From assembly GCA_046484125.1 (NCBI GenBank), contig JAWOBX010000049.1, positions 4,437-68,436 of the forward strand: DNA of 64,000 nt, written 5' to 3'. The stretch's first letter is position 1; every line of letters starts with the position of its first letter. The notes below the pieces were generated by a model that had not been told where the DNA came from, searched no databases, and saw nothing but the letters and a program-made list of their open reading frames with translations. Origin of the DNA: Dehalococcoidia bacterium. Lineage in GTDB: Bacteria > Chloroflexota > Dehalococcoidia > SZUA-161 > SpSt-899. Shown piece after piece: positions 9,327-52,783 of the stretch. The translations under genes and the position numbers were made by a program.

Positions 9327-10108
9327 CATACCAATCACTTCTCCTGGAAAAAGATAGCGGTCTGGCTACAGTCACGCTTAACAGGCCTGAGAAGATGAAC
9401 GCCATCTCTCCCGAACTGGTGGACGAATTGATTGAAGTGATAGATGAAACAGAGCGCGATGACGAAGTCCGCGCGGTACTGATTACCGGGGCGGGGAGGG
9501 CATTTTGCGCGGGAGGGGATGTCGAAACCCTTCTTTCCGGGACCGATAACCCGGCTGAAGTCTACAGCTCCAGCCTGAAGGGTGCCAAGATAATCTCCGG
9601 AATTAGAAACGCCTCCAACCCATGGATAGCGGCGGTCAATGGTCCGGCGGTCGGTGCCGGGTGTAATCTTGCTATCGGTTGTGATATTATAATTGCGGCC
9701 AGTAGCGCTACGTTCAGCCTGGCGTTCATGAAGCTCGGGTTGCACCCGGATACCGGGGGCATTTACCTGCCCACCCGATTGTTGGGCCCAGCTCGTGCGC
9801 TTGAGCTGGTTTTAACCGGTAAAACAATCGGAGCGGAAGAGGCTGAAAGAATAGGATTGATAAACCTGGTTGTACCGGATGATGAACTGGCGATCAGATC
9901 AAAAGAGATGGCACTAAAGCTGGCTCACGGTCCATCAAGGAGTATAGCGATGGCCAAGTCCAGCATCTATAGCGCCGCGAGTATGGATATGGAGTCGATA
10001 CTGGAGAGTGAAGCTCGTGCGATCAGTCTGACAATGGCAACAGACGATGCGCGAGAGGGAATAAGAGCTTTTCTGGAAAAGAGAAAGCCTCAGTTCAAAG
10101 GAAAGTAA
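9323..10108 (+). CDS. Enoyl-CoA hydratase/isomerase (crotonase family)
   Basis: LITGAGRAFCAGGDV oxyanion-hole motif; about 261 aa from in-frame ATG at 9323. Confidence 0.8.
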   Translation: MTYQSLLLEKDSGLATVTLNRPEKMNAISPELVDELIEVIDETERDDEVRAVLITGAGRAFCAGGDVETLLSGTDNPAEVYSSSLKGAKIISGIRNASNPWIAAVNGPAVGAGCNLAIGCDIIIAASSATFSLAFMKLGLHPDTGGIYLPTRLLGPARALELVLTGKTIGAEEAERIGLINLVVPDDELAIRSKEMALKLAHGPSRSIAMAKSSIYSAASMDMESILESEARAISLTMATDDAREGIRAFLEKRKPQFKGK

Positions 10109-38696: not shown

Positions 38697-39377
38697 TCAT
38701 CTCATCCACTCAGCGAGAGAGTCGATCGGCTCACGATCGCTCTTGAAACTATTGGCCGGGAAATCCCAATCCGGATAGCCGATATCCACAGCGACGATGA
38801 GCTTCTTTGAATCAGGAATGCCAAGCGCCTCTTTGAGTTCGTCCGGATAAAATACCGTATCCTGTTGTATACATGTGCCAAGGCCGTATTCGAGCGCTGC
38901 CAAAGCAATTGTCTGGGTGATTATCCCTATATCCAGTAGTGATATATGGTGGGCCTCGTTGTACATACCCTCATCCACACATACGATAATTGCGGCGGGA
39001 GCATCGAAGAATCGTTTTCCTCTAAACTGCCACTCCTTTCGTCTGTGCCTGTCATCGCGTTCAATACCCATTGCCCCGAAGAGTCCCCTGGCGAGATCAT
39101 TCTGACGGTCCACGTACGGGCTGGGGAGTTTATTGGGTGGCAGTGCCTTGAAATCCGGGCTGATGGGCGCACCTTCATTAAGTTTTTGCTCGTTTATCCT
39201 CTTTGACCGGGCGAGTGCATCCCCGTTGAGTACAATGAACTTCCAGGGCTGACAATTGGTTGCCGAAGGTGCCAGCCGTGCCAGATCAAGGACGGCTTTT
39301 ATAATCTCTTCCGGCACCGGCTCTGACTTAAATCCCCTGATGCTTCTCCGTTCTCTTATGGCATCTTTTATATCCAT
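38697..39377 (-). CDS. Nitroreductase-family flavoprotein
   Basis: RRSIRGF ... PSATNCQPW motifs. Confidence 0.8.
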   Translation of the reverse strand: MDIKDAIRERRSIRGFKSEPVPEEIIKAVLDLARLAPSATNCQPWKFIVLNGDALARSKRINEQKLNEGAPISPDFKALPPNKLPSPYVDRQNDLARGLFGAMGIERDDRHRRKEWQFRGKRFFDAPAAIIVCVDEGMYNEAHHISLLDIGIITQTIALAALEYGLGTCIQQDTVFYPDELKEALGIPDSKKLIVAVDIGYPDWDFPANSFKSDREPIDSLAEWMR

Positions 39378-39389
39378 TGGCCCCCTATA

Positions 39390-39665
39390 CTACCTCTTGA
39401 GTTTCCCAATGCGGTCGATGATTTTTTCCGTCTCAGCCCGCAAACCGTAGACTTCCTCAATAAGACGGGGCAGATCAACAGGCTCAGATTCGGCCGCCAG
39501 AATTGCGCCTTGAGTGCATACCGTCACACATAACCCGCACCCGTTGCACCTGGCCTGATCTATGCAAGCTACTCCCGATTCCAGCGAAATTGCGCCGCGA
39601 AAACAGGTCATGGCACATCTTCCACAGGCCTGGCAGAGATCTTTCCTTACCCTGAACCGCTTCAA
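39390..39665 (-). CDS. 4Fe-4S dicluster ferredoxin
   Basis: CQACGRC and CNGCGLCVTVC. Confidence 0.8.
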   Translation of the reverse strand: MKRFRVRKDLCQACGRCAMTCFRGAISLESGVACIDQARCNGCGLCVTVCTQGAILAAESEPVDLPRLIEEVYGLRAETEKIIDRIGKLKR

Positions 39666-40357
39666 ACTGTCAATTCCTTACCGACACCAACTTCTACGAA
39701 ATTATCACCGAACGATTCCTTAAAAGCCTTCATAGCCTCAGCACCGGAACAATGACAAGGCGCAACTTTCTGGACGCCGAGCTCAATGAACCTGTCCACT
39801 ACAGATTCGGGGGGAGAATGGAACCCGCCGAGTACCAGATGTATGCCTGTGCCTGCTACTTCCTTCGCGGTTTGGACAATATTTACGATGCCCGGGTGAG
39901 CACATCCCGTAATAATCACTGTACCTTTAGTGGTTCTAAAAGCTAGTGCTTGTTCCGGGATTATGCCGTGCATCTCACCGGTGGTGAACACCCCTTCAAG
40001 AATTTCCCCTCCCTCAGCTATGTCTTTTACAGCGACTCCGAAGTGTCTCACATTAGACTTATACGATTCAGGGAATGATTCCGGCAGGTAAACCATTACA
40101 TGGTTGTTTGATTCCAGCAATACTCCCAGCCCGTTAGCGTGATCCCAATGAGCATGTGAGAGCGCAACCACTTCAATTTCTCCCGGATCAACACCCAGCT
40201 TTTTCATATTTTCGATGAGAATTGTTCCGTTGGCACCGGTATCGAACAGCATTGTCTTTCCCCCGTACCATATAACGCAGGCAAATCCCCAATCCGCTAC
40301 CAGCTCTGATTTCAACGTTTTATTGTCGAATACTACCAATCCTGAAAATTCCGCCAT
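39662..40357 (-). CDS. MBL-fold metallo-hydrolase
   Basis: SHAHWDHANG motif. Confidence 0.75.
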   Translation of the reverse strand: MAEFSGLVVFDNKTLKSELVADWGFACVIWYGGKTMLFDTGANGTILIENMKKLGVDPGEIEVVALSHAHWDHANGLGVLLESNNHVMVYLPESFPESYKSNVRHFGVAVKDIAEGGEILEGVFTTGEMHGIIPEQALAFRTTKGTVIITGCAHPGIVNIVQTAKEVAGTGIHLVLGGFHSPPESVVDRFIELGVQKVAPCHCSGAEAMKAFKESFGDNFVEVGVGKELTV

Positions 40358-40406
40358 ACTGATCTGACCTCTCTCTGTATATGAGAAGACAATAGAATCG
40401 ATATTA

Positions 40407-41288
40407 CTAAGATTGCTTTATATATGTATAGGGCTCTTTCCTGTATTTCATTGCTTCATTCAAGAACAGTTTACCCGTGAGATATTTAAGCACGGGCGAT
40501 AAATCCACTGACTTGGCGCCCCGCGGACAGTTCTTAACACAACTCATACAACCAAGGCATAAGTTTTCTGCGGATTTGTTCTTGTAAATTTTTGTCTCCC
40601 AATCTATTATACCCATCGGACAGAATTGCACACAAATTCCACAATGGTCGCACTTCTCCAGGTCAGTTTTCGGCTTCGGCGGGATTTCAGGAGTGATCCT
40701 CAGAAGCACATCCCGCTGACCTGGAACATCCTCGGCATGTACTTCATTGAGTGTACCCAGAGAGTCATGAATAGCCTTACCAAAACCACGGGCCAGAGTC
40801 ATATCATTATCGTCAGGTCGCCCCAGAGCTATCGGGAACTCTGAGGACAATGAATGTTCACCTATGAAAGAGGCCACCCCCACAACTTTAAAATCGTTCT
40901 TATCAAGCATCGTTACCAGTTGCTTCAGCCCGATACCAGCCCCCTTATTACCGTATACGACGATGGCTATAGCCAGCTTTCCGTTCCCGTTTACTTCTGC
41001 AAAGCTCTTCGAAAAGAACTTGGGTATCTTATCGAAATAGACCGGCAAACCTACGATGAGCAAATCCGATTCATTTATGAAAGCATCGGGACTGTTGAAA
41101 AAACTTTCCCTCTCATCTGCATTTGAAAGGTTAATGACCTCGTCGTTATTCAACCCCAACCCACAGGATACATTCTCTACTACGGTTCTGGTTGTACCGG
41201 TCGGCGAAAAATACAATTGCTTTATGTTATGTTGTTTCAAGCCACCCCCTGGCTCAAAAGGAACTACCACCATTAATTTACAAAGCAA
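40407..41288 (-). CDS. Flavodoxin-like domain fused to 4Fe-4S dicluster ferredoxin (EFR1-like)
   Basis: YFSPTGTT flavodoxin start; C-terminal CDHCGICVQFCP and CLGCMSCVKNCP. True start may lie downstream of the track start. Confidence 0.6.
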   Translation of the reverse strand: MLCKLMVVVPFEPGGGLKQHNIKQLYFSPTGTTRTVVENVSCGLGLNNDEVINLSNADERESFFNSPDAFINESDLLIVGLPVYFDKIPKFFSKSFAEVNGNGKLAIAIVVYGNKGAGIGLKQLVTMLDKNDFKVVGVASFIGEHSLSSEFPIALGRPDDNDMTLARGFGKAIHDSLGTLNEVHAEDVPGQRDVLLRITPEIPPKPKTDLEKCDHCGICVQFCPMGIIDWETKIYKNKSAENLCLGCMSCVKNCPRGAKSVDLSPVLKYLTGKLFLNEAMKYRKEPYTYIKQS

Positions 41289-41343
41289 TTTGATCGATAG
41301 TAGTCCTAATTATGTTTTCCTCTTGCCGAATAACACACTCGAA

Positions 41344-41802
41344 TTACCTGGGCCGAAATAAAACCTCGCAGGAATCAGCTCCTGTTGCGCGTGATTCAAC
41401 AATATGCATCTCGACATCAATACCACTGACCGATTTGAACTGACCTTGATTGACGCTCATAACCGCTTCGCAAATCTGACGTCCGGCGCCTTCCAGTCCG
41501 ACAGCACATGGTTGACCCTGCTCAGTCCTGAAGTGATATCCATTATTCGAAAGCTCCAAAAGTTGACCACCCAGTTCATCCAGTTTGAACGAAAGGTCGT
41601 TGATGGCACTCGCTGCCGTTTTAAAATCATGGATTTCACGTTTAGTCTTCAAACGCTCCCCGAGTTCCAGTCCCATGTAATACCATGCATCTCTGACTGC
41701 CGGAATCGCTTCATCACCGAACAACTGGTACGAACGCAAAGACAGTCGACAAAGTGCCTGGTAGGCAATGGTGAAGGGGCTTTTATTAGTCTGGTCTTGC
41801 AT
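41344..41802 (-). CDS. Hypothetical protein (152 aa), possibly V4R-like domain
   Basis: No confident family; sits between EFR1-like and HdrD-like genes. Confidence 0.3.
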   Translation of the reverse strand: MQDQTNKSPFTIAYQALCRLSLRSYQLFGDEAIPAVRDAWYYMGLELGERLKTKREIHDFKTAASAINDLSFKLDELGGQLLELSNNGYHFRTEQGQPCAVGLEGAGRQICEAVMSVNQGQFKSVSGIDVEMHIVESRATGADSCEVLFRPR

Positions 41803-41826
41803 CTCTCCTCCCTGTTAACTGGAGCC

Positions 41827-42930
41827 TTATCCTAACGCACGGAGAACAATACCGGTAAAATAGGTCACTGTCTGTTCAAGCTGTCTCTTTTTTGAAGCAT
41901 AGTTCAGGTTGAACGTACAAAACGGACAGGCGCTTATTATCGAATCTGCGGGCATCTCGTTAAGAGTACTGGCGGCTATATCCATCGATAAATCGCGGTA
42001 AACGGATCTTATTCCCCCACCCGCACCGCAGCAAGTTGCCTGCCCCCGGTTATTTTCAGCTTCTTTCAGTTCCACCCCGCACCACCGTAAAACCTCGCGT
42101 GGCTGCTCGGTTATCCCTTCACCCCTGGACAACCTGCATTGATCCTGATACGTTGCGGATTCCTCGATATTGCGGAGAGCGGTTTTGTTCTCCTTGAGGG
42201 AATCGTAAATCAATTCAATAACATGCCTTACACGAAATTCCGTCTCTCCGAGCATGTCCGGATAGAAATATTTGAAGCACTTGAGACAACCGTTACAGGG
42301 GACAACGATCTCTTTAACACCGAGCGAATTGAAACGCTCAACATTTCTCTGAAATAATTCGCCGGCCAGGTCGGTTCGGCCGGATTCATAAAGGTAAGTC
42401 CCGCAACAACCCTCATCCTCGAGAATCATGAAATCCACATCGAGTTTCTTCAGACACAGATAAGTGGAGGCAGCGGAATCCTTTACCAGATACGATGGCA
42501 GACAACCAAGATAAAGAAGTCTTTCAGACTCGTTCTTCGGAAACCTCTCGGGTAACCAGTCGAGGCGGGTCTGAGGATCTCCGTTAACGGAATTACCCTT
42601 TTCTAAAATCCCTTCAATTACCTTGTTGTGTTTTTGTGTCGGCCCCAGACCACGCCTGACCAGCTCTTTACGGGACTCGTGTAATACGAGTGTGAAGGGT
42701 ATCTCTTCAGGACATACGGATTCGCACCGCATACACTTTGGACAGTTGTAAATGCTCTCCATCTGGAGCTCGCCTATGCTCCCGCCCTCAAATATGGCTG
42801 CTGCTGTCTCGAGTCGTTTCGGTGGTGAAAACAACTGGTTATGTGTCACATTATACGTAGGGCATATATCCACGCATTCTCCACAGTCGGTACAGGCTCT
42901 GGCCACAACCGCTACGTCTATCATCAACAA
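41827..42930 (-). CDS. HdrD/GlpC-like Fe-S oxidoreductase (2x[4Fe-4S] + two CCG domains)
   Basis: CTDCGECVDICP, CPKCMRCESVCP, then CCG-type cysteine clusters (CCGTY, CNGCLKC, CCGAGGG, CPFCTFN). Confidence 0.75.
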   Translation of the reverse strand: MLMIDVAVVARACTDCGECVDICPTYNVTHNQLFSPPKRLETAAAIFEGGSIGELQMESIYNCPKCMRCESVCPEEIPFTLVLHESRKELVRRGLGPTQKHNKVIEGILEKGNSVNGDPQTRLDWLPERFPKNESERLLYLGCLPSYLVKDSAASTYLCLKKLDVDFMILEDEGCCGTYLYESGRTDLAGELFQRNVERFNSLGVKEIVVPCNGCLKCFKYFYPDMLGETEFRVRHVIELIYDSLKENKTALRNIEESATYQDQCRLSRGEGITEQPREVLRWCGVELKEAENNRGQATCCGAGGGIRSVYRDLSMDIAASTLNEMPADSIISACPFCTFNLNYASKKRQLEQTVTYFTGIVLRALG

Positions 42931-42946
42931 TCCTGAAATATGTTAC

Positions 42947-43615
42947 CTATATGCGTTCGTACCATCTGGCGACATCATCCGGTGTGAAGGGACCGCCATG
43001 CCCCGGATAAATCACATTCGGATTGTGGTCCAGCAGGTGTTTGACGCTCTCTTTGAGGAGAGACCGGTCGACTTCAAAGGGTGGCAGATTGGGGTGATGG
43101 GGGCGAATTTTCCCAAAAAAACCTCCCATAATCAGGTCGCCTACAAAAGCCTCACCCGTATCAAGTATTACCGAAACAGACCCCCTTGTATGACCCGGCG
43201 TCAACAGGATTCCGCCACTTATTCCGTATTCACCCAGACTCATTTCATTTTCTATGACTAAATCAGGCTCAACCGGAGCTGTTTTTGTAGATCGCATGAA
43301 CAGTGGCATAAGCCGCGCTATTATACCAACAGGTTTGTCCATCCTGGATATACCCGTGCGCGTACAATCCGCATCTTCTGAATGTATGGCAATCTCCGCG
43401 CTTGTCGAACTTTTTAATGAGGAAGCTGATCCCATGTGGTCGAAATGACCGTGTGTGATTATGATCAGATTTGGCATAATTTCCATCTCTTGGCACTTGG
43501 AAATAATATCCGTTTCACCTCCTGGTAAGCCAGTATCGATCAACACCGCTTTTCCAAGTTCCTCTACGATATATGTATTGGCAAATCCTCTAACAGCAAC
43601 CCGTTCAATCCTCAT
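42947..43615 (-). CDS. MBL-fold metallo-hydrolase
   Basis: THGHFDHMG motif. Confidence 0.75.
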   Translation of the reverse strand: MRIERVAVRGFANTYIVEELGKAVLIDTGLPGGETDIISKCQEMEIMPNLIIITHGHFDHMGSASSLKSSTSAEIAIHSEDADCTRTGISRMDKPVGIIARLMPLFMRSTKTAPVEPDLVIENEMSLGEYGISGGILLTPGHTRGSVSVILDTGEAFVGDLIMGGFFGKIRPHHPNLPPFEVDRSLLKESVKHLLDHNPNVIYPGHGGPFTPDDVARWYERI

Positions 43616-43627
43616 AAACAGTCCTGC

Positions 43628-44398
43628 TTATAACTGAGGCCTTCGACGAAGCGTCTGTTCCATGTTTACAGGTTCCACAGCAGGTTTTTGGGATTCGTAT
43701 ACCATGACCACCCGGTCACCGAGCTCCTTGAACTTAGACTTAATGGAAATCATCGTGTCCTCGGCCAGCGGCCGGACTGCGCATGGCCTGGTCGGCGTAT
43801 TGACTTGAACTTCATTCGGTGAAATGGCGGCTGCCAGTTCAGCCATGTCACTGACTCTGACATAGTTCTCCTCCATGAACATCATCTGCAGTGCCAGCCT
43901 GCCGGAAAACCGGCTCCTGAACTTCTTTATGCCTTCGATTATTCCATTCAACCGAATCCCTTCAACGGGCCGATTAACCATTTGGAACGTATGTTCATCC
44001 GGTGCATCCATTTTGGCTACAACAACATCCGCGCGTGACAAATCCCTCCTGACATCGTCAAGAGAGATCAGTGAGGAATTGGTCAATATCGCAACCGGTA
44101 AATCAAGTGTGTCTCTGACAAGTTGAATAGCATCACCAAGGTTAGATGCCAGCGTCGGTTCACCTGTCCCCGAAAAGGTGACAAAATCTGCCGCGATACC
44201 TTTTACTGATATCAACTCTCGAGCAAGCGTATCTATGGAAATATACTCTGACCTTCCAGACGCAAAAGCTTTCGTCTTACCCAGTTGGCAATAGATACAA
44301 TCGAAGGAACATGTTTTTCCCTCTTGAGAAATAAGGTCTACACCCAGAGACCTTCCCAATCTCCATGAAGCGACGGGACCGTATATAATCTCGTTCAT
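43628..44398 (-). CDS. Radical SAM protein
   Basis: CSFDCIYC (Cx3Cx2C) near N-terminus; GTGEPTL glycine-rich SAM motif. Confidence 0.75.
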   Translation of the reverse strand: MNEIIYGPVASWRLGRSLGVDLISQEGKTCSFDCIYCQLGKTKAFASGRSEYISIDTLARELISVKGIAADFVTFSGTGEPTLASNLGDAIQLVRDTLDLPVAILTNSSLISLDDVRRDLSRADVVVAKMDAPDEHTFQMVNRPVEGIRLNGIIEGIKKFRSRFSGRLALQMMFMEENYVRVSDMAELAAAISPNEVQVNTPTRPCAVRPLAEDTMISIKSKFKELGDRVVMVYESQKPAVEPVNMEQTLRRRPQL

Positions 44399-44428
44399 GG
44401 CTTCAAGTCCGATGACTTATGCTCTTAT

Positions 44429-44809
44429 CTAACCCCATTTCTGAACCGTATAGCCTTTTGGCAGATGGGCAGTTCCTTTCACGCATGGGATACCCGTATC
44501 ATTGTGCACCCTTTCGATTATGCTGTCGATATCAGGGCAGAAACCGCCACCTTCCAGCTTCCAGCCCTGGTCCGTTTTATTGGCGAACGTGCAGGTGCAA
44601 AAGTGGATCACCTCAGCACCCTTTTGCTGAAGTATCCTGGCCAGTTCCGGGGTGGAGTCTCCGGGACAGTGACATGTAAAGACACCTGAAAGAGTACACT
44701 CATCATACATAGAGAAGCCCTCTTTTCGGCCTGCCAGACAAGCAAAACAGGCCGTCAATGGACACTGATCCATGTTCTTCTCGCATCTCATGATAGCTAC
44801 CTTCGCCAT
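44429..44809 (-). CDS. CGGC-domain protein
   Basis: AIMRCEKNMDQCPLTACFACL ... FTCHCPG ... IHFCTCTF pattern. Confidence 0.65.
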   Translation of the reverse strand: MAKVAIMRCEKNMDQCPLTACFACLAGRKEGFSMYDECTLSGVFTCHCPGDSTPELARILQQKGAEVIHFCTCTFANKTDQGWKLEGGGFCPDIDSIIERVHNDTGIPCVKGTAHLPKGYTVQKWG

Positions 44810-44825
44810 TGTTCATTGCTCCTTT

Positions 44826-45185
44826 TCAGAAATTGTTATTCAAATCATCGGCCATTCTTCTTTTCCAGCATCTGCCTCCCCTCCCACGACCTCTTCCACA
44901 TCTTCCACCACCCCTCATAAACCAGGTTGAACCTGTCTCACCTAAATGAACAGCCCTTCCCATACGGTTGTCATAAAGCCAGCGAGATGTCGGGTCGCTC
45001 AAAACCTGATAGGCCTCGTTAATCTCTTTGAAACGTTCCTCCGCCCATGCTGTATTTGCCGGATTTCTATCCGGGTGATAAAGTTGCGCCAGCCTTCGAA
45101 ACTCCCTCTTTATATCATCCTGACCGGCGTTTCTGTTCAGGTTTAGAATCCTGTAGTAGTCTTTTTGAACATCATATGGCAGCAT
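44826..45185 (-). CDS. J-domain (DnaJ-like) protein with Gly/Arg-rich C-terminus
   Basis: DYYRILNL...HPDRNP...EAYQVLSD J-domain with HPD; tail GGGRCGRGRGRGGRC. Confidence 0.75.
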   Translation of the reverse strand: MLPYDVQKDYYRILNLNRNAGQDDIKREFRRLAQLYHPDRNPANTAWAEERFKEINEAYQVLSDPTSRWLYDNRMGRAVHLGETGSTWFMRGGGRCGRGRGRGGRCWKRRMADDLNNNF

Positions 45186-45187
45186 AT

Positions 45188-45934
45188 CTACCTCGCCCAG
45201 TGAACGATTTCAAGCAACTTCGCCGGGATAAGCCCTCCCGCCAACCCGACATATTTCCGAATAAGCGCACCGTGTGATTTCGGCTCAAAAGAAGGGAGCC
45301 TTTTCATATCAGGACTCTGGTGTATTTCCTTGATTTTTTGCAGTAACTCAAGATTTCCGCCCCTTCTCTCGATTTCTCTCCACACACAGTCCCTTTGGGT
45401 ATCCAAGGTGCATTCCACACCATCTTCAGGCGCTTTACTGCAAGGCCCGTACAGGCTTCTTGCCGGACATAAAGCAACTGGACATATACCTGCCGTGTAA
45501 GAAATCACACAGTGGCCGCACGATTTGCAAAGTGACTCCGCTATCATATCGCCTTCATAATCACCAGGATGAACCAGGCTGGATGCACCGACCGTGTCGC
45601 ACGCTGCGATGACCGGGATTCCGGGTTCGCACAGGATGGCAGATTTAACTCCTGCAGCGCAGCTAATAACGATAAGTTTGTCTGTATCGGATTTACGCAA
45701 AACAGACTGCTGTGCCTGTTTCATAATCGGTTGAGGGCAGCATGCGGCTATCGTCTTTGAGGCGGTTACCTTGTTTCCCCACCCCTCCACAAGCCCCTTT
45801 ATGAAGTTCATTCCCCTCACACCACCCACATCACATAAATTGGCGCAAGCCCCGCATGATATGATGGCTACGTTATCGTTTTCGCCTATTGAAAATCTCA
45901 ACTCCTCTGCCGATTTGTACCTCGTCTCGATCAT
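45188..45934 (-). CDS. Cysteine-rich Fe-S protein resembling the MTHFR C-terminal domain / MetV family
   Basis: CGACANLCD, CKSCGHCV...GICP motifs; 248 aa; no metF nearby. Confidence 0.45.
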   Translation of the reverse strand: MIETRYKSAEELRFSIGENDNVAIISCGACANLCDVGGVRGMNFIKGLVEGWGNKVTASKTIAACCPQPIMKQAQQSVLRKSDTDKLIVISCAAGVKSAILCEPGIPVIAACDTVGASSLVHPGDYEGDMIAESLCKSCGHCVISYTAGICPVALCPARSLYGPCSKAPEDGVECTLDTQRDCVWREIERRGGNLELLQKIKEIHQSPDMKRLPSFEPKSHGALIRKYVGLAGGLIPAKLLEIVHWAR

Positions 45935-46136: not shown

Positions 46137-46598
46137 CTATCTTCTCCTGTATGCTTTCTTCCACGGCTCGCGCTTCATCTTGAGGTAATCCTTGATGGCC
46201 TCTTTTATCGCATTGGCTGCCAGCGCAGCGCAATGCTCGTTCTCCTCCGGTAAGCCATCAAGTGATTTCAACACGTCCTGTTGTCCTATCCTTTGCGCTT
46301 CAGCTAGGGGCTTGCCCTTGGCCATCTCAGTGATGACGCTTCCACATGCGATCGTGCTGGAACACCCATCCGTCCAGAATCTTGCATCACGTACAACGTC
46401 ATCTTTAACTTTCAACCATATCTCCATGGAATCCCCGCATGAGCCAAGCGCGCCGCCATACCCATCAGCAGCAGGCATTTCGCCCACATTGCGTGGATTC
46501 ATAGCGTGATCTATGGTCTTTTCCGAATATATCTTTCTGATGTCTTCCAGGACCATTTCCTGAAGCTCTTGCTGGATCTGGTCGATATCTTTTTCCAT
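46137..46598 (-). CDS. IscU/NifU-N-terminal-like Fe-S cluster scaffold protein
   Basis: Three scaffold cysteines in GSCGDSMEIWLKV, DGCSSTIACGS, HCAALAANAIKEA. Confidence 0.75.
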   Translation of the reverse strand: MEKDIDQIQQELQEMVLEDIRKIYSEKTIDHAMNPRNVGEMPAADGYGGALGSCGDSMEIWLKVKDDVVRDARFWTDGCSSTIACGSVITEMAKGKPLAEAQRIGQQDVLKSLDGLPEENEHCAALAANAIKEAIKDYLKMKREPWKKAYRRR

Positions 46599-46764: not shown

Positions 46765-47103
46765 CTAGTGGTCGCATGTATTATCGCCCGTCTCCAGATT
46801 TCCCTTCAGATATTCCATGACTATCTCTTGCGGTTCCATAGAGGGTGCACCGATAACCACATGGATTCTGCTCTGCCAGAACAGGTCCTGTGCCCGTGTA
46901 CCCATACCGCCCGCAATGACTACCGAAACTCCCTGCTCGGCGAGCCAGCCTGGCAGAACCCCCGGCTGGTGTCCGGGAGAAGGAACAATCTCCTTACTTT
47001 TGACAACCTTGCTATCCTCATCCGCATCTACAAGTGCAAATGCCTGGCAATGACCGAAATGCTGATCAAGAACACCATCGCTTACAGGTATTGCGTATCT
47101 CAT
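46765..47103 (-). CDS. NifB/NifX/NafY-family dinitrogenase FeMo-cofactor-biosynthesis-domain protein (stand-alone)
   Basis: MRYAIPVSDGVLDQHFGHCQAFALV start typical of PF02579 proteins; 112 aa. Confidence 0.7.
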   Translation of the reverse strand: MRYAIPVSDGVLDQHFGHCQAFALVDADEDSKVVKSKEIVPSPGHQPGVLPGWLAEQGVSVVIAGGMGTRAQDLFWQSRIHVVIGAPSMEPQEIVMEYLKGNLETGDNTCDH

Positions 47104-47148: not shown

Positions 47149-47394
47149 TCAGTTTTCATTCTTTCGGCATGTACCACCTGTGGAACAGGGTGGTGCGTCA
47201 CAACGCTCCTCTCTACCACAGCATGTCGTGCCTGATGTAGTAATCCCCGTCCTTATTGCATACGACTTGTTGAGGAGTCTTTCCACATTGGCGCTTCCAC
47301 AATCCGGACAGCTCACGCCACTGATATCCGAACTATGCAGCAACACCTCGGCTACCGCTCCGCAATCACTACACTTAAAATCGTATATGGGCAT
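47149..47394 (-). CDS. FmdB-family zinc-ribbon protein with Cys-rich tail
   Basis: MPIYDFKCSDCG...CPDCG; C-terminal TTCCGREERCDAPPCSTGGTC. Confidence 0.7.
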   Translation of the reverse strand: MPIYDFKCSDCGAVAEVLLHSSDISGVSCPDCGSANVERLLNKSYAIRTGITTSGTTCCGREERCDAPPCSTGGTCRKNEN

Positions 47395-47424: not shown

Positions 47425-47634
47425 TCAGGCCCAGCTTCCAGGACGAATATATTTTGCCTTTTCCCCACCACCCCCATAGGCCATTCTCCAGTACCTGCAG
47501 ATCCTGTAAGTGCTGTTCTCAGGCTTAAAAGCTCCACAATGAGGACAGTATGGCGGGTCACCTTCCTCCTTACAGGGTTCAAGCAATTCAAATTCCTCAC
47601 CACATTTGTCGCACCGATATCCAAAAATAGGCAT
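47425..47634 (-). CDS. FmdB-family zinc-ribbon protein
   Basis: MPIFGYRCDKCGEEFE...CPHCG. Confidence 0.7.
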   Translation of the reverse strand: MPIFGYRCDKCGEEFELLEPCKEEGDPPYCPHCGAFKPENSTYRICRYWRMAYGGGGEKAKYIRPGSWA

Positions 47635-47695: not shown

Positions 47696-47884
47696 TCAAC
47701 CTCCTGAAGGGGCCGGAGCGCATCCGGTATCCGAGCCTCCGCTCCTCGCGAACACAGATACACTTCTCTCAGGACTCTCCTCCCCGCATCTGGGGCACTT
47801 GATCTCGGAATCATCGTCACTGAAGCGCCTCATCAACTCGAACTTGTGACCGCATTTGCTGCACACGTACTCATAAATCGGCAT
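47696..47884 (-). CDS. FmdB-family zinc-ribbon protein
   Basis: MPIYEYVCSKCGHKFE...CPRCG. Confidence 0.7.
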   Translation of the reverse strand: MPIYEYVCSKCGHKFELMRRFSDDDSEIKCPRCGEESPERSVSVFARSGGSDTGCAPAPSGG

Positions 47885-47895
47885 GACAGATCACC

Positions 47896-48756
47896 TCAAG
47901 ATGCTATTATTCTGGAGACCGATTGCCACATCGACTCCATTTGTCGGGCAACTTCTCCACTGGTGTATTCTATCACAGGTACACCTTTAATAAGAGCCTC
48001 CGTGATCACATCATCATATGGAATCCTGGCAACAACCTCAAGTCCAAGCTCCTGGCACGTAGACTCAATACTGGTGGTATTTTCTTCGCTCAGATCATAT
48101 TTGTTAATGCAAACCATAGCCGGGACGCCAAAATGTTTACAAACTCCAATGACTCTCTCAAGATCATGCATACCCGAGAGTGTCGGTTCGGTAACAACAA
48201 GCGCGGCGCTCGCGCCAGACAGTGATGAGATCACCGGACACCCGATGCCCGGCGGCCCATCGGTGATAACATAGTCAAGTCCCATCTCCTCACCCACCCT
48301 CCAGGCCTCTTTTCTTACCGTGCTCACCAGTTTACCGGAGTTCTCCTCGGCTATTCCGAGCCTGGCATGTACGAGCGGCCCATATCTGGTATCCGAAAAA
48401 TACCAGTGCCCTGAAAGGTTATCCTCCATTATGATGGCTTCCTCGGGGCATATGTGAGAACAAAAACCGCAGCCCTCGCAGAACGAAGGATTAACCGCAT
48501 AATCACTGATGGCATCAAACCGGCACATATCCTCGCATAGACCGCATTGCGTACATTTTTCCGGCTCTATTCTGGCGGTCTGACCGCTCCAGAATTCGTT
48601 ATCCTGTTTCCTGACCGGATCAAGCAAAAGGAATAGGTCAGCGGCGTCAACATCGCAATCGCACAGGACCTTATTATCCACGAGGCAGGCCAATCCGCCT
48701 ACTATACTGGTTTTTCCGGTACCACCCTTACCGCTGAGAACAACGACCTCTTTCAT
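47896..48756 (-). CDS. MinD/ParA-family P-loop ATPase with inserted 2x[4Fe-4S] ferredoxin domain (MinD-Fer)
   Basis: SGKGGTGKTS deviant Walker A; CTQCGLCEDMC and CEGCGFCSHICP insert; start set at MKEVVV. Confidence 0.75.
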   Translation of the reverse strand: MKEVVVLSGKGGTGKTSIVGGLACLVDNKVLCDCDVDAADLFLLLDPVRKQDNEFWSGQTARIEPEKCTQCGLCEDMCRFDAISDYAVNPSFCEGCGFCSHICPEEAIIMEDNLSGHWYFSDTRYGPLVHARLGIAEENSGKLVSTVRKEAWRVGEEMGLDYVITDGPPGIGCPVISSLSGASAALVVTEPTLSGMHDLERVIGVCKHFGVPAMVCINKYDLSEENTTSIESTCQELGLEVVARIPYDDVITEALIKGVPVIEYTSGEVARQMESMWQSVSRIIAS

Positions 48757-49013
48757 TCCGGCACCTTCGCCCAAATCCGAAATACCCTCTCGCCGTCACG
48801 CTCATAACAGGCCAATCCCGCTGGATCCACCTCTTCTACCTCAATATCCCCGTCCCCATACACTTCCCTGAACTGTTCCAGCCAGTTACGAAAGTGAGAG
48901 CCACCTCCGAAATAGACTTTTCTCCACATGTTACCTTCTCTATCGGCTCTCTCTCTGATCGCTTCTTCACGTGCTATCCATTCAGGGGCGCAAGCCTCGC
49001 TCTCCATTAACAT
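48753..49013 (-). CDS. Small hypothetical protein between the two MinD-Fer genes
   Basis: 86 aa, acidic; overlaps both neighbours by a few codons (translational coupling). Confidence 0.4.
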   Translation of the reverse strand: MLMESEACAPEWIAREEAIRERADREGNMWRKVYFGGGSHFRNWLEQFREVYGDGDIEVEEVDPAGLACYERDGERVFRIWAKVPE

Positions 49014-49849
49014 ACCCCCTGTTTTATTCCCTCATAAAGAGCACAAAATCTCTCTTTCCATTCGGGTTTACCTGTAACAAGCGGAACACCCTTCGCGTAC
49101 ATCCTGGCGATATCCATATCCAGAGGTATCTTCATCATCACAGGGATGCCCTTCGAGTGACAATATTTTTCGACGTTAATGTCACCATCACCGCTACGAT
49201 TAATAACCACACCGCGTGGTATCTTCAGGGTGGCGATCGCGTCAACCGCCAGTTCAAGGTCATTGAGGCCGAAAGGTGTAGGGTCAGTAACCAGCAGGCA
49301 GAAATCGCTTCCCTTAACCGCTTCAATAACCGGGCACGATGTGCCGGGCGACGCATCGATAATGGTGATATCCTCACCACCAACGCATTTCTTCACCTGC
49401 CGAATAACCGGAGGTGCCATAGCCTCCCCTACATTGAGCACACCCTGAGCGAATTCTATTCCACTGGCTCGGCCCTTCTCGATCTTCCCGATTGCCCTTG
49501 GCTCTTCTGTAATGGCCTTTTCCGGACACAGATAACCGCATGCTCCACACCCATGGCAAAGCTCATGAAAAGTCATCACCGTCGTCTTCAAAACCGCGAG
49601 GGCATTGTACGCGCATACATCCGCGCATAAACCACAATGAGTGCAAGCATTTTCGTCAATTACCGGAACAGGAATTACGGCGACTTCGCTCTCAACAAAC
49701 TCAGGCCGCATAAATATATGGTCGTTCGGCTCCTCGACATCACAGTCGAGGAGTTTTACCCGGTAACTTCCCGAAAGCGACAGCGCCAGGCTGGTTGCTA
49801 CCAGTGTCTTTCCTGTACCGCCTTTTCCACTGGCAACCGAGATTATCAT
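49007..49849 (-). CDS. MinD/ParA-family P-loop ATPase with inserted 2x[4Fe-4S] ferredoxin domain (second MinD-Fer)
   Basis: SGKGGTGKTL; CTHCGLCADVC and CHGCGACGYLCP. Confidence 0.75.
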   Translation of the reverse strand: MIISVASGKGGTGKTLVATSLALSLSGSYRVKLLDCDVEEPNDHIFMRPEFVESEVAVIPVPVIDENACTHCGLCADVCAYNALAVLKTTVMTFHELCHGCGACGYLCPEKAITEEPRAIGKIEKGRASGIEFAQGVLNVGEAMAPPVIRQVKKCVGGEDITIIDASPGTSCPVIEAVKGSDFCLLVTDPTPFGLNDLELAVDAIATLKIPRGVVINRSGDGDINVEKYCHSKGIPVMMKIPLDMDIARMYAKGVPLVTGKPEWKERFCALYEGIKQGVC

Positions 49850-49850
49850 C

Positions 49851-50078
49851 CTATTCTCTCACCATGGCCGTACTGCATTTCGGGCAACTGATTTCGGTGC
49901 ACGGTGTTCCCGGCTGATGCGGAACTCTCTCACCACAGCTCGGGCAAACGCAATTACCCCCAGGCCCCATTCCCGGTCGACCCATTTGCCCACTCTGCCT
50001 CTTTTGCCCTTTGCCTCTCATTCCTCTGCCCGTCCCCGGGCCCTTTCCAGTCGGTCCTGTTCCATCACCTCTGGGCAT
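49851..50078 (-). CDS. DUF5320-like small protein with C-terminal zinc ribbon
   Basis: N-terminal MPRGDGTGPTGKGPGTGRG matches the DUF5320 start motif; CVCPSCG...CPKC ribbon. Confidence 0.55.
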   Translation of the reverse strand: MPRGDGTGPTGKGPGTGRGMRGKGQKRQSGQMGRPGMGPGGNCVCPSCGERVPHQPGTPCTEISCPKCSTAMVRE

Positions 50079-50107
50079 TATTCCACTCCTTTTGCCATAC
50101 AGGCAAT

Positions 50108-50608
50108 CTATTTGATTCTTTTCTCCAGATCATTTATCCGCGAGATCATATCATCCATCTGCCGTTTCATTGAGTCGGCCCTGCTCTTTAAATCTTCGAT
50201 CTCAGTGCTGGCATTGCCGGCATACCCGACATCTCCAGCGTTCTTCCCTATACCCGCGTGCGCCCCCACCGTGGGACCGTGCGCAACATTCATGCTTCCT
50301 GATTTATAACGCTCAACCGCTTCTTTTACGCTGCCGGAAACACCGGTCAGTATTTCAATTCCCGCCTGGGCGAGAACCCGGTGTGCGTTCGGGCCAATAT
50401 TGCCGGTCAACACCGCCTGTACTCCCCTGTTGGCAACAACCTGGGCGGTGGCAATACCAGCTCCTCCGCCCGCCGAGCTATCGGCATTATTGTGCGCTTC
50501 GTATTCCATGTTTTCGGTATCTACAAATATAAGGTACTGGCATCTTCCAAATCTGGGATCCACTTCTGCGTCAAGTGTCTGGCCTTTAGCTGAAACTGCT
50601 ACTTTCAT
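50108..50608 (-). CDS. NifB/NifX-domain protein with C-terminal DUF5320-like Gly-rich/coiled-coil tail
   Basis: MKVAVSAKGQTLDAEVDPRFGRCQYLIFVDTEN (PF02579-like); tail ...EIEDLKSRADSMKRQMDDMISRINDLEKRIK. Start set at MKVAVS, not the upstream track Met. Confidence 0.6.
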   Translation of the reverse strand: MKVAVSAKGQTLDAEVDPRFGRCQYLIFVDTENMEYEAHNNADSSAGGGAGIATAQVVANRGVQAVLTGNIGPNAHRVLAQAGIEILTGVSGSVKEAVERYKSGSMNVAHGPTVGAHAGIGKNAGDVGYAGNASTEIEDLKSRADSMKRQMDDMISRINDLEKRIK

Positions 50609-50830
50609 CAATCCTTCCTTTTTCAATTTATGGAGTTTTATTTGGCGTACCTGTTCAGGCAAACTCATGAGCAAATTTTCCGGCATCAAACATGGGAATT
50701 GCGAACATAGGTACGACATTCAAATCCACAAACTTGCCACCTGTTCATGAGTCCTCACTGAATTTATGATACTCCTCTATCATCAAAGATATACCAATCC
50801 TTATATCCAGTCAAACAGTAATTTCCCTTC

Positions 50831-50886
50831 GCTAACGGCGGGAACTACCCCGAAGGTAAATCCCCGCCGTTAGCTTTCTTTTTTGT
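50831..50886 (+). terminator. Strong hairpin (12 bp perfect stem) plus T-run, intrinsic-terminator-like in the plus-strand sense, inside a minus-strand gene cluster
   Basis: gctaacggcggg-aactaccccgaaggtaaat-cccgccgttagc followed by tttcttttttg. Confidence 0.5.
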
Positions 50887-50937
50887 TCAATGGCCCGCTA
50901 ATCCAGTACACATCTAACAGCTTATTGAAAAGTCATA

Positions 50938-51270
50938 TCAACTCTGGTTTTGCTGCAACTCTTTTATTCTGGACTCGATATCCTCGAGTTCTTCCTTTAT
51001 GGCCTGCGCCTGATTTTGTAGCATATCCATTTCCTGCTCCCGGCTCATGGCAGGCGGGGCATACGCTGTATCATACGGTGCGCCATATGCCGCACCGTAT
51101 GCTGGGCCTCTCCAGCCCATCCCCCGGCCACGCCCGAATCCAGGGCCGCGTCCAAATCCTCGGCCTCTGCCAAACCACCCTCTTCCCGCTCCCCAGGGAT
51201 TGCAGAAACCTCTTCCTCCGCCGGTCATGGGTCCCATGCCGAGCGGTCCTGTTCCATCAAATCCTGGCAT
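50938..51270 (-). CDS. DUF5320-family protein: Gly/Arg-rich N-terminal region plus C-terminal coiled coil
   Basis: MPGFDGTGPLGMGPMTGGGRGFC start; GRGWFGRGRGFGRGPGFGRGRG repeats; C-terminal EQEMDMLQNQAQAIKEELEDIESRIKELQ. Confidence 0.6.
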   Translation of the reverse strand: MPGFDGTGPLGMGPMTGGGRGFCNPWGAGRGWFGRGRGFGRGPGFGRGRGMGWRGPAYGAAYGAPYDTAYAPPAMSREQEMDMLQNQAQAIKEELEDIESRIKELQQNQS

Positions 51271-51298
51271 TGCTTTTACCTCCTTTCCAAGATATTAT

Positions 51299-51598
51299 CT
51301 ACCATCGGTAGGGATTATTATATGGTCCAGTTGGTGCCGGCGCGGGTGGACCGTACATCGCACCCGGGTACCAGGCTCTTCCGGGTGCCCATGGATAAAT
51401 CCTGCACATCCTGCCCCGGCCGAAACCGCGTCCCCATCCACCCCCGAAACCTCTTCCACGACCCATTCCGAGTCCTCGACCGAAGCCTCTGCCCCAGCCA
51501 AAACCCGGACCGGGGCCCATACCGTACCCGGGGGCCCATCCAAAGCCACCGCCCCAACCGAACCATCCTCTTCCTTTTCCAAACGGCATTTCCATCAC
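51299..51598 (-). CDS. Gly/Arg/Trp/Phe-rich low-complexity protein (paralogous to the DUF5320 Gly-Arg region)
   Basis: FGKGRGWFGWGGGFGW...GRGFGRGLGMGRGRGFGGGWGRGFGRGR. Shares the GRGWFG motif with the neighbouring protein. Several overlapping ORFs on both strands here; frame chosen by operon orientation and paralogy. Confidence 0.45.
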   Translation of the reverse strand: MMEMPFGKGRGWFGWGGGFGWAPGYGMGPGPGFGWGRGFGRGLGMGRGRGFGGGWGRGFGRGRMCRIYPWAPGRAWYPGAMYGPPAPAPTGPYNNPYRW

Positions 51599-51611
51599 CC
51601 CCTTTCGGGAT

Positions 51612-52277
51612 CTATTCCTTTCTTTTCAATTTGCTGTAGTATGAATCGGATAAATACAATCCAGCAGCCGGATTGTGACCGAATACTCTGTCTTTGGCAA
51701 TCAGCACCGTGACCGGTGCCTTACAATGCCTGAAGAACAGGGAATCATGCCCGACACACAGACCTACTGCGATATTGAAGTCCGTCTCTTCATCATTGAG
51801 TATCTGCGCCTGCGCTATTGGATTGCACATGGCCTCGCGTACATCCGGTCCGGCAATCTTCTGCTCTCTGGAGACCCCTATCTGTTCCTTGGGAACGGAA
51901 CCCGCTTTACAACAGACTGAAACCACATCGAATCCACGGTTCTCAAGTATATCTGTCAACGTTAGCGCCTCATTCCGCAGGCCAACACAGAATGCTATAC
52001 CGAGCCTCTTGTATCCCAGCTTCTTCGCGAACTGGGCAACCTCCTCAACCCTCGGATTGCGCGGAGTTCTTCCTTCCGGCAGATTCATATAACATTCATA
52101 TTCCTGAATCGAGGCTTCCTTCGCGAATTCCTTTGTCTCAGACTCTTCATATGTCTTCAGTGCCCTTTTTACAGCATCAGAATGCCTTACCATCGGGCAG
52201 TTCTCCGGCGCCTGGTTCGTTTCCTCACGATAGCACTTGAAACTCGAACACCTCGCGCAATCCGTTTTCATCTCCAT
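51612..52277 (-). CDS. DUF1847-like cysteine-rich metal-binding protein
   Basis: MEMKTDCARCSSFKCY ... FCVGL ... VCCKAG ... CVGHD pattern. Confidence 0.5.
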   Translation of the reverse strand: MEMKTDCARCSSFKCYREETNQAPENCPMVRHSDAVKRALKTYEESETKEFAKEASIQEYECYMNLPEGRTPRNPRVEEVAQFAKKLGYKRLGIAFCVGLRNEALTLTDILENRGFDVVSVCCKAGSVPKEQIGVSREQKIAGPDVREAMCNPIAQAQILNDEETDFNIAVGLCVGHDSLFFRHCKAPVTVLIAKDRVFGHNPAAGLYLSDSYYSKLKRKE

Positions 52278-52306: not shown

Positions 52307-52783
52307 TTACCTTCGCCATCCTCTGCCCCTTCGTCTTCCACCCCTTATTTGTCGCCTGGCACCGGCAGCAGGCGGAGCCGGCTCCGAATACGGCTTCTGG
52401 CACCTTGGACATAAACTTAAATCCTCATGATCTACCATATCCAGCGGAACCTCCCATTCATGTCCATCCCAGTCACACCTCAACCTTCGCCGCTGAACCT
52501 CAAAATTGCCGCCTCCTATCCTTATTGCCTTGCCCATCGTAAGGGCCTCAGCCACCTTGGCACGGGCGGAACCAAGCACCCGGTGAAAAGTAGGCCTCGA
52601 TATTCCCATCCTGCTGGCACATTCCTCCTGTTGCAGTCCCTCTCTATCCTTAAGCCGCATCGCTTCCAGCTCCTCAAACGAGAGTGAAATCTCTTCAATC
52701 GATCGGATTGGTATTCCGGCCGGCTTGAAATGAGTGGCCTCAGGTACGTAACCAACGCGCCTTCCTTTTACTGGTCTTGGCAT
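52307..52783 (-). CDS. DUF134 (UPF0251) putative DNA-binding regulator with C-terminal zinc ribbon and Arg-rich tail
   Basis: MPRPVKGRRVGYVPEATHFKPAGIP...LSFEELEAMRLKDREGLQQEECASRMGISRPTFHRVL matches DUF134 consensus; CDWDGHEW...CPRCQ. Confidence 0.7.
   Translation of the reverse strand: MPRPVKGRRVGYVPEATHFKPAGIPIRSIEEISLSFEELEAMRLKDREGLQQEECASRMGISRPTFHRVLGSARAKVAEALTMGKAIRIGGGNFEVQRRRLRCDWDGHEWEVPLDMVDHEDLSLCPRCQKPYSEPAPPAAGARRQIRGGRRRGRGWRR

Follow-up and report, generated by a model that had tools for sequence, protein, structure and literature searches.

What is the function of small proteins rich in glycine, arginine and aromatic residues that are encoded in the middle of an iron-sulfur (Fe-S) gene cluster? 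The question is raised by a 64,000-nucleotide stretch of DNA from a Dehalococcoidia bacterium (contig JAWOBX010000049.1, positions 4,437 to 68,436; this whole stretch is called the window, and position 1 is its first letter). An earlier note on the window, made from the sequence alone, had described Gly/Arg/Trp/Phe-rich, intrinsically disordered proteins of the DUF5320 type. Three small genes are concerned, all of them on the minus strand. They encode a DUF5320 protein of 110 residues (50938..51270), a protein of 96 residues that we call the GW protein (51299..51589; its open reading frame (ORF) reaches a GTG at 51598, which gives 99 residues), and a protein of 75 residues with a Cys-rich domain (49851..50078). 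A fourth gene on the same strand encodes a NifX/NifB-type protein (50108..50608; PF02579, IPR003731). The three small genes are real and conserved. For their function we favor, by analogy and with a probability of about 0.4, the reading that their products are polycations resembling the tail of the protein IssA. They would be supplied separately, tethered to the NifX protein by a shared helix, and would bind anionic Fe-S or metal-sulfide material.

Reading Frames of the Small Genes

All four ORFs are present on the minus strand at these coordinates, and an AAGGAG-type ribosome-binding site lies ahead of every start. The genes are syntenic across at least 15 lineages. Comparison with homologs from related loci gave mismatches at the first, second and third codon positions of 3/4/23 for the 75-residue gene and 7/9/19 for the DUF5320 gene (both against locus L004), and of 16/16/43 for the GW gene in its 99-residue form (against locus L001). 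The excess of third-position substitutions indicates that purifying selection acts in the claimed frames. In the GW gene the ribosome-binding site is found 8 nt ahead of the ATG at 51589 (MPFGKGRGWFGWG), where the homologs start as well, and the true start is therefore probably 51589 rather than 51598. Apart from this shift, the frames at the coordinates of the earlier note were upheld when ribosome-binding sites were taken into account.

Overlapping ORFs on both strands, to which the earlier note had also drawn attention, are indeed present. None of five alternative-frame or antisense ORFs that were checked is recorded in a collection of 15 billion proteins, from which the GW ORF is absent too. 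A Pro-rich antisense ORF of 221 residues (51047-51712, plus strand) runs across the two low-complexity genes and their spacer. Its sequence has no record in the protein collection, and it is a compositional artefact, the complement of GGN/CGN-rich codons. One may ask whether the ORFs described here, chiefly 51299-51598, are themselves artefacts of composition, either non-coding or called in the wrong frame or on the wrong strand. The overlapping ORFs would fit such an explanation, as would the state of the annotation. In the source record, the consecutive accessions MFO8010099 to MFO8010104 stand for an ATPase, the 75-residue protein, the NifX protein, the DUF5320 protein, a DUF1847 protein and a DUF134 protein; the GW gene lies between MFO8010102 and MFO8010103 and has no accession. 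In locus L001 the GW homolog (7726-7953) is not called at all, and the 75-residue homolog (9275-9523) is annotated in the wrong frame (9288-9515). On the other side stand the third-position excess in the claimed frames, the ribosome-binding site in front of the GW start and the lack of any recorded product of the alternative frames. Moreover, the slot is occupied in distant genomes by homologs that agree with GW in their N-terminus, core motif and aromatic C-terminus. The non-coding or wrong-frame explanation was therefore rejected, and we regard its probability as negligible. Gene callers systematically miss or mis-frame such genes, so that their distribution is underestimated.

Start sites are affected as well. 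Many entries (P0003, P0045, P0047, P0123, P0125, L005 4067-4600 and others) show an N-terminal extension that ends in K-E-V directly before the MP start. These three residues arise when the AAGGAGGT ribosome-binding site is translated in frame, which marks such extensions, and some of the apparent "fusions", as start miscalls.

An origin of the repeats by expansion at the DNA level was considered and rejected. Tandem Repeats Finder (TRF) reported one weak 18-nt x 2.3 repeat and no real tandem array, and the coding strand of 50938-51598 contains no G3-type G-quadruplex motif. The glycine codons are mixed, like those of the adjacent genes. Mixed codons together with the lack of a DNA array indicate that the repeats are kept at the protein level.

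Architecture of the DUF5320 and 75-Residue Proteins

The 110-residue protein matches the Pfam DUF5320 family (PF17253) over the complete profile (95.2 bits, E 5.8e-27, positions 1-99 of 99; gathering threshold 27 bits). It is identical to NCBI MFO8010102.1, named "DUF5320 domain-containing", and is a formal, full-length member of the family. Its composition agrees with the description as a protein dominated by GRG and FGRG repeats: 25 Gly, seven GRG and three FGRG were counted, and GRGWFG, said to be common to this protein and the GW protein, occurs once in each. The chain is divided into an N-terminal motif (N-motif, MPGFDGTGPLGMGPMTGGGRGFC, residues 1-23), a cationic linker of Gly, Arg, aromatic residues and Pro (residues 26-74, pI 11.3) and an amphipathic four-heptad helix (residues 75-107) with hydrophobic residues at 81, 84, 88, 91, 95, 98, 102 and 105. 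Among 22 diverse DUF5320 sequences, M1, P2, D5, T7, G8, P9, G11, G13, P14, T16, G17, G21 and C23 of the N-motif are invariant, and its near-invariant form reads MPxxDGTGPxGxGPMTGxGxGxC. In the linker the sequence varies and the composition is conserved. Median values for 116 homologs were 48 residues, 26% Gly, 21% aromatic residues, 8% Arg+Lys, 0% Asp+Glu and 14% Pro; the net charge is positive in 110 of them, and usually one Cys is nearby.

AlphaFold2, run with an alignment, assigned a pLDDT below 50 to residues 1-66 and predicted a helix at residues 77-109 with a pLDDT of 72-91. The C-terminal coiled coil that had been proposed next to the DUF5320 signature is thus backed by the Pfam match, the regular heptads and the predicted helix. 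The description as intrinsically disordered fits residues 1-66, but the protein is not featureless: it is modular, with a near-invariant N-motif and a linker conserved in composition. No solved structure related to DUF5320 or to the 75-residue protein was found, and a tblastn search of plasmids with the DUF5320 protein gave no match. In a full-text literature search DUF5320 was mentioned by two papers only, and neither of them links it to Fe-S.

The 75-residue protein (NCBI MFO8010100.1, "hypothetical") has a DUF5320-type N-motif (MPRGDGTGPTGKGPGTGRG), a Gly/Arg/Lys linker and a Cys-rich domain of the pattern CxCPxCG-x4-H-x2-G-x-PC-x4-CPxC, ending in CVCPSCG...H...PC...CPKC. Its first 44 residues align with positions 1-46 of the DUF5320 profile at 21.6 bits, below the threshold of 27, and some of its homologs have a precomputed PF17253 match. 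The label DUF5320-type, which had been given to all of the small proteins, therefore applies formally to the 110-residue protein and in the N-motif alone to the 75-residue protein; the GW protein does not match PF17253 and has a family of its own. The 75-residue family comprises 327 clusters at 90% identity, in which the N-motif is kept and C43, C45, C48, H54, C60, C65 and C68 are invariant. In the AlphaFold2 model the pLDDT is ~47 for residues 1-40 and 88-93 for residues 41-75. The N-motif part of the earlier description was correct; the zinc ribbon to which the motif was said to be fused is one possible reading of the Cys-rich domain. The pairs C45-x2-C48 and C65-x2-C68 follow the zinc-ribbon pattern, but C43, H54 and C60 are invariant besides, and Foldseek returned weak zinc-ribbon/rubredoxin-like matches to the Cys-rich domain (E >=1), none of them significant. 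Because six invariant Cys and one His exceed the need of a zinc ribbon, this Cys6His domain may hold zinc or another metal site.

A Helix Shared with the NifX Protein

The NifX protein (NCBI MFO8010101.1) consists of the PF02579 domain, a Gly-rich stretch and a C-terminal heptad helix. A profile built from DUF5320 C-termini alone matched 21 NifX tails, with a best E value of 2e-11, and matched residues 139-163 of the window NifX protein (E 7e-4 and 7e-5), where the earlier note had seen a similar Gly-rich/coiled-coil tail. The DUF5320 and NifX helices both show perfect 3-4 hydrophobic spacing, and precomputed Pfam matches independently place DUF5320 on NifX proteins. Judged by sequence, the C-terminal helix of the NifX protein is homologous to the DUF5320 helix.

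The same parts are joined differently in related loci. Fusions of NifX, linker and Cys-rich domain are found in L029 and L064, a NifX-DUF5320 fusion in L091, and a doubled N-motif with a GW-like end in L081. The proteins are modular, with a head (N-motif or NifX), a cationic Gly/aromatic linker and an anchor (four-heptad helix or Cys6His domain).

The GW Protein and Its Family

Counted from the ATG at 51589, the GW protein contains 33 Gly (34%), 12 Arg+Lys, no Asp or Glu, 21 Phe/Trp/Tyr (22%), 13 Pro and 1 Cys, and has a pI of 11.6. Seven GRG, three GWG and two FGRG motifs accompany the single GRGWFG, again as the earlier description had it. The N-terminus MPFGKGRGWFGWG is followed by GRGFG repeats, the core MCRIYPWAPGRAW and a Pro/Tyr-rich end, ...PYRW. 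No Pfam or NCBIfam family was matched at E values up to 0.1. A word-index homology search with the 99-residue protein gave a single match (P0001). An exhaustive search with HMMER among 1.84 billion representatives gave 18 matches at E <=1e-3, of which ~12 are convincing; about a third of the 18 are unrelated Gly-rich repeats. Members of the family have the N-terminus MPFGRGWFGWG, GRG(F/M)G repeats, the core NPYPFCRFYPWLPRRWW (RMCRIYPWAPGRAW in the window), for which the motif is C-R-F/I-Y-P-W-L/A-P-R-R-W-W, and an aromatic, Tyr/Pro-rich C-terminus. In P0128 and P0135 the core is joined to a helix of the DUF5320 type, and in P0123, P0125 and P0127 a ferredoxin domain (2x[4Fe-4S]) lies upstream of the GW part or is fused to it. 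Gene neighborhoods were read where the sequence sufficed (the 1-kb contig of P0128 shows no neighbor); the GW gene was found directly beside DUF5320 or NifX, within a cluster containing a DUF134 gene, in P0001, P0129, P0125, P0138, L001, L047 and others.

A profile-profile comparison with hhalign matched GW to DUF5320 at 98.7%. This match was rejected, as it was due to the two members that bear a helix and to Tyr/Pro-rich low-complexity columns. By its sequence features, GW represents a separate small family without a Pfam model and does not belong to DUF5320. Elsewhere the slot between DUF134 and DUF5320 is occupied by at least four other types of small protein (loci including L005-L046), most of them with the same helix. 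Among the types in L005-L046 are "MPNGFGRGFGFGRG..GFGFRGSSPPWPYVGRGRGGLPRCGYF" plus helix, "MPNGGRGNRWMYQLTGLPGWMRFGF..." plus helix, and a Trp-rich "MWPWFGYWRPWRWGWPGYGW" plus helix.

RNA and G-quadruplex (G4) structures are bound by the RGG boxes of eukaryotes. The Arg/Gly-rich segments of the window proteins might likewise bind RNA or G4 DNA, and DUF5320, GW and DUF134 would then serve the operon by regulating genes or handling RNA. In favor of this, DUF134 belongs to the helix-turn-helix proteins and ends in an RG-rich tail. Both DUF134 and DUF5320 also occur in the archaeon Methanosarcina mazei, where they were among the four best candidates when the proteome was scanned for an RG-type quadruplex-binding motif (PMC7565180), although this published suggestion is based on the motif match alone. 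In the loci examined, the fusion partners are NifX, ferredoxin and Cys-rich metal domains and never a nucleic-acid-binding domain. The gene context is Fe-S throughout, every family has a conserved Cys, and an Rfam scan of 45.5-53.5 kb revealed no element at the locus. Since every fusion partner is a metal domain, we consider nucleic-acid binding quite improbable.

Cluster Type and Distribution

Species-representative genomes were scanned with the DUF5320 profile. The scan confirmed 390 loci, and 80 were fetched for context; these came from Chloroflexota, Desulfobacterota, Bipolaricaulota, Omnitrophota, Firmicutes, Planctomycetota, Lentisphaerota, Acidobacteriota and others. The recurrent gene order is DUF134, one or more small Gly/Arg/aromatic ORFs, DUF5320, NifX with tail, the protein with N-motif and Cys-rich domain, two ATPases, NifX and NifU. 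Of 84 loci, 49 have a DUF134 gene upstream of DUF5320, and in 38 of 71 a NifX gene follows DUF5320 at a distance of at most 1.5 kb. An ATPase gene lies within 5 kb in 44 of the 59 loci with enough sequence. A member of the Cys-rich family is present in 32 of 59, and an extra small Gly/Arg/aromatic paralog accompanies DUF5320 in 33 of 64. The L091 cluster contains a cysteine-desulfurase-like gene.

Three of the DUF5320 clusters (L060, L068 and L081) encode a full MrpORP, which scored 515-557 bits against an NCBIfam equivalog cut-off of 450. These equivalogs identify the clusters as being of the ORP ("orange protein") type. In Desulfovibrio vulgaris Hildenborough, the anaerobe-specific ORP genes are arranged as orp7-orp8-orp9 and orp5-orp4-orp3 (PMC6345978, PMC8359166). 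Orp3, Orp4, Orp5, Orp8 and Orp9 make up the Desulfovibrio ORP complex, for which a link to cell division and polar localization is putative; the MrpORP domain binds Fe-S, and MrpORP passes clusters to Orp3-Orp4-Orp8 (PMC6345978). In the window, two paralogous MinD/CbiA-type P-loop ATPases (49007-49849 and 47896-48774, minus strand; Pfam CbiA, ParA, Fer4) correspond to Orp3/Orp4. Each has an inserted 2x[4Fe-4S] ferredoxin domain with the two [4Fe-4S] motifs of these proteins; a comparison of the ATPase with solved structures gave generic MinD and ferredoxin domain matches only. The protein at 50108-50608 is a single-domain NifX-type protein like Orp8, with an added helix; its gene takes the place that Orp8 and IssA-like proteins have elsewhere. 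In place of MrpORP (Orp9) the window has a stand-alone NifX domain (46765-47103, minus strand), closest to the C-terminal domain of MrpORP, which matches positions 265-365 of the NCBIfam MrpORP model at 121.9 bits against the cut-off of 450. An IscU/NifU_N scaffold gene follows (46137-46598, minus strand). The window cluster is an ORP-type, anaerobe-specific Fe-S gene cluster, and the Fe-S setting claimed in the earlier note is borne out by the ferredoxin-ATPases, the NifX proteins and the NifU_N-type scaffold. By position, the NifX protein corresponds to orp8 and the ATPases to orp4 and orp3. From gene position alone, DUF5320 would be Orp7 (DVU2107) and the 75-residue protein Orp5 (DVU2105/Dde_3197, a [2Fe-2S] protein). 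According to a title cited in PMC6345978, a small protein of the ORP operon binds [2Fe-2S].

The ORP complex suggests another role for the small proteins, that of a protein scaffold in which the linkers are mere tethers without an inorganic ligand. The N-motif would be a short docking peptide for NifX or the MinD-like ATPases, the complex would be oligomerized by the coiled coil, and its proposed role would lie in cell division or polar localization. The near-invariant N-motif fits a docking peptide, the heptad helix is common to several of the cluster proteins, and the Desulfovibrio ORP proteins form a physical complex (PMC6345978). The linkers, however, are held to a tight composition across phyla (no acidic residues, ~21% aromatic, positive charge in 110 of 116), which is unexpected for pure tethers. 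The GW protein, helix-less and poor in motifs, has no obvious tether role, and Orp7, the position equivalent of DUF5320, is not among the five listed subunits of the complex (PMC6345978). We therefore judge a pure scaffold to be rather unlikely.

Comparison with the IssA Tail and a Proposed Role

IssA of Pyrococcus furiosus (PF2025, Q8TZG9; Vaccaro et al. 2017) has a NifX-type domain and a cationic, thioferrate-binding tail (PMC5524996). The tail of 70 residues (15 Gly, 14 aromatic, 7 cationic, 11 Pro, 1 Cys; pI 10.7) is predicted to be unstructured and has been proposed to wrap anionic (FeS2-)n electrostatically, its Trp, Gly and Arg being conserved in character and not in sequence (PMC5524996). 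Compared by the published composition of this tail, the GW protein and the DUF5320 linker lie within a few percent of it. The assertion in the earlier note that RG-rich disordered regions are unusual in prokaryotic operons accordingly needs qualifying, given this precedent and a DUF5320 family of at least 4770 clusters at 90% identity, whose genes recur in this type of gene cluster in many phyla.

The role that we favor would be carried out as follows. As flexible polycations with stacking aromatic residues, the linkers would wrap and neutralize an anionic metal-sulfide, possibly thioferrate-like (FeS2-)n or a related linear Fe/Mo/Cu-sulfide, which would be assembled on the NifX-type domain or handed over by it. 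The DUF5320 and NifX proteins would pair via their homologous C-terminal helices. The 75-residue protein would bring a tail and a Cys-rich metal site, and the helix-less GW protein an additional polycation. The ferredoxin-ATPases and NifU would load or mobilize the stored material, and DUF134 would regulate the operon. The reality and conservation of the genes, the homology of the modules and the match in composition are established; we infer the pairing of the helices, the nature of the ligand and the direction in which it moves.

Several findings weigh against this proposal. The operational criteria of the IssA clade (Vaccaro et al. 2017, Supplementary Fig. 7) are an IPR003731/PF02579 domain, a pI >=9, a Gly content of >=20% over the 40 residues at the C-terminus and <5 Cys. 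The window NifX protein has the domain (PF02579, E 9.8e-25) and 1 Cys, but its pI is 6.1 and Gly makes up 5% of its last 40 residues; the low terminal Gly content results from the heptad helix in which the protein ends. Among the NifX+tail ORFs of related loci, just 4 of 44 pass all of the criteria. In the relatives the NifX tails are rich in Gly, Met and Arg and not aromatic, which could indicate another ligand, e.g. Cu(I). Many DUF5320 loci have a helix-less NifX or no NifX within 1.5 kb. Finally, the strict conservation of the N-motif suggests a specific docking or ligand site, which electrostatics does not explain.

The ligand may be a different anionic or soft-metal species, such as thiomolybdate, thiotungstate, a Mo-Cu-sulfide as in the orange protein of Desulfovibrio gigas, or Cu(I) bound via GMGRGMG, and the function detoxification or cofactor trafficking. 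Orp8 homologs carry a non-covalent [S2MoS2CuS2MoS2] cluster (PMC6345978), which fits this idea, as do the Gly/Met/Arg repeats of the relatives' NifX tails and the Cys-rich DUF1847 or DUF364 "heavy-metal chelation" protein in the variable slot of the cluster. In copper-surface experiments with D. alaskensis G20, the response of Dde_3197, Dde_3198 and Dde_3199 was strong, a shift of ~6-7 log2 units; they moved along with feoA and flavodoxin, however, which points to iron (PMC10533852). This response is circumstantial support for the polycation proposal. Furthermore, the cluster showed no transporter or cofactor genes for Mo, W or Cu, and NifU, an Fe-S scaffold, is a conserved member. An anionic or soft-metal ligand other than iron-sulfide is, in our judgment, unlikely.

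The proposal that the small proteins act as separate IssA-like tails can be extended to a "split IssA" in ORP-type clusters of anaerobic Bacteria. A NifX scaffold would recruit, via the coiled coil, a variable polycationic set (DUF5320, GW and at least three further paralog types) that, together with it, templates and sequesters an anionic polymer of iron-sulfide, giving a condensate or an assembly of protein and mineral. This extension is a speculative one, about which we have considerable doubt. If true, it would assign to the ORP complex and DUF5320 the function of storing and buffering Fe-S in anaerobes. Thousands of anaerobe genomes contain DUF5320 genes and ORP clusters, and polycation-wrapped iron-sulfide storage would then be widespread in anaerobic bacteria and not a specialty of Thermococcales. 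To our knowledge, IssA is the sole biological thioferrate store described so far. The DUF5320 family, the ORP cluster (since 2011) and the IssA tail (since 2017) were known already. New are the explicit analogy to the IssA tail, the demonstration of shared modules and the unannotated accessory GW family.

Other Genes and Features of the Locus

In the order of transcription, the genes of the cluster are DUF134, DUF1847, GW and DUF5320, then a hairpin with a promoter-like site, the NifX protein with helix, the 75-residue protein, the first ATPase, an 86-residue ORF and the second ATPase, followed by three Zn_ribbon_8-like ORFs, the second NifX domain and the NifU_N-type scaffold. Within the 64-kb window, the Gly/Arg/aromatic composition, the N-motif and the helix are confined to the ORFs described.

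DUF134 (52307..52783, minus strand; Pfam PF02001, E 2.6e-21) is the first gene of the cluster and probably its regulator. The 158-residue form of the protein, starting at 52783, is NCBI MFO8010104.1; it has a zinc-ribbon-like CxxC pair and the Arg/Gly-rich C-terminal tail RRQIRGGRRRGRGWRR, which is encoded at 52307-52360 (minus strand). The homologs in L001 (...GRGRGCGRGGRR) and L004 (...KGRRRRGRGWRE) end similarly. With these tails, the putative regulator shows the same cationic tail chemistry as the proteins encoded downstream. The next gene (51612..52277, minus strand; Pfam PF08901, E 5.8e-61) encodes the DUF1847 protein, with 11 Cys. No DUF1847 homolog was found among 84 related loci. The slot after DUF134 varies, and several GW-containing clusters (L085-L089) have a 240-residue DUF4213/DUF364 ("heavy-metal chelation") protein in place of DUF1847.

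A GC-rich hairpin and a promoter-like site lie between the DUF5320 and NifX genes (50786..50874, minus strand; hairpin arms 50831-50842 and 50863-50874). GC-rich hairpins 3' of the DUF5320 stop are also present in L004 (1019-1120) and L001 (8397-8428); their sequences differ, and there is no U-tract in the sense direction. The promoter-like sequence TTGACT-17-TATCTT (50814-50786) stands upstream of the NifX gene, and a TTGAC-17-TATCTT site is conserved in L004. Folding of the intergenic RNA gave z = -2.85. Hairpin and promoter-like site form a probable boundary between two transcription units; alternatively, the hairpin region is possibly a device that sets stoichiometry.

An acidic ORF of 86 residues (48753-49013, minus strand; pI 4.7, with Trp) straddles the junction of the two ATPase genes, overlapping the first at its 3' end and the second at its 5' end. 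This ORF is kept in a few close relatives (L001, L002, L004, L008 and L041), and its exact sequence has no record in the protein collection. Its product could be a partner of the cationic tails. The three tandem Zn_ribbon_8/FmdB-like ORFs after the second ATPase gene (47696-47884, 47425-47634 and 47149-47394, minus strand; 62, 69 and 81 residues) differ in their Cys/Gly-rich tails, and related clusters have 0 to 3 copies. The labels NifU_N and Zn_ribbon_8 were taken from Pfam matches of the L001, L002 and L004 homologs and from phmmer searches, which matched the window ORFs to these loci.

Downstream of the cluster (38697-45934, minus strand), genes were found for DUF5981, a 119-residue DnaJ-domain protein that is possibly an HscB-like co-chaperone, CGGC, radical SAM, a metallo-beta-lactamase fold, an HdrD-like CCG/Fer4 protein and a nitroreductase. 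The synteny of DUF5981, DnaJ and CGGC is kept in L001. The radical SAM gene, 6 kb downstream, had raised the idea that the small proteins are precursors of ribosomally synthesized and post-translationally modified peptides (RiPPs); it was rejected, as radical SAM is not a conserved member of the cluster.

Comparison with Known Systems

The repeated RG/RGG with interspersed aromatic residues and the predicted disorder resemble eukaryotic RGG/RG-box regions. The resemblance is one of composition: the proteins of the window have no RNA-binding partner domain, are encoded among Fe-S genes and possess a conserved Cys and N-motif.

The window cluster and the ORP system of Desulfovibrio have in common two MinD-like ATPases with two [4Fe-4S] motifs each, preceded by a small Cys-rich protein, and a single-domain NifX-type protein, whose gene is preceded by a small ORF. 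The cluster type is restricted to anaerobes. The window cluster differs in its organization, since the Desulfovibrio genes form two divergent sigma-54 operons with the enhancer-binding regulator OrpR between them, whereas the window cluster is co-directional and headed by DUF134. Of MrpORP the window cluster has just the NifX-type half.

The tail of IssA is joined covalently to the NifX domain and forms the end of the protein. In the window, in contrast, the tails are separate small proteins with an N-motif, a coiled coil or a Cys-rich domain, and the NifX protein is acidic, with a helix at its end. Both systems combine a NifX-type IPR003731 domain with a disordered, cationic segment of Gly, aromatic residues and Pro that contains one Cys, and both are found in anaerobes in an Fe-S context.

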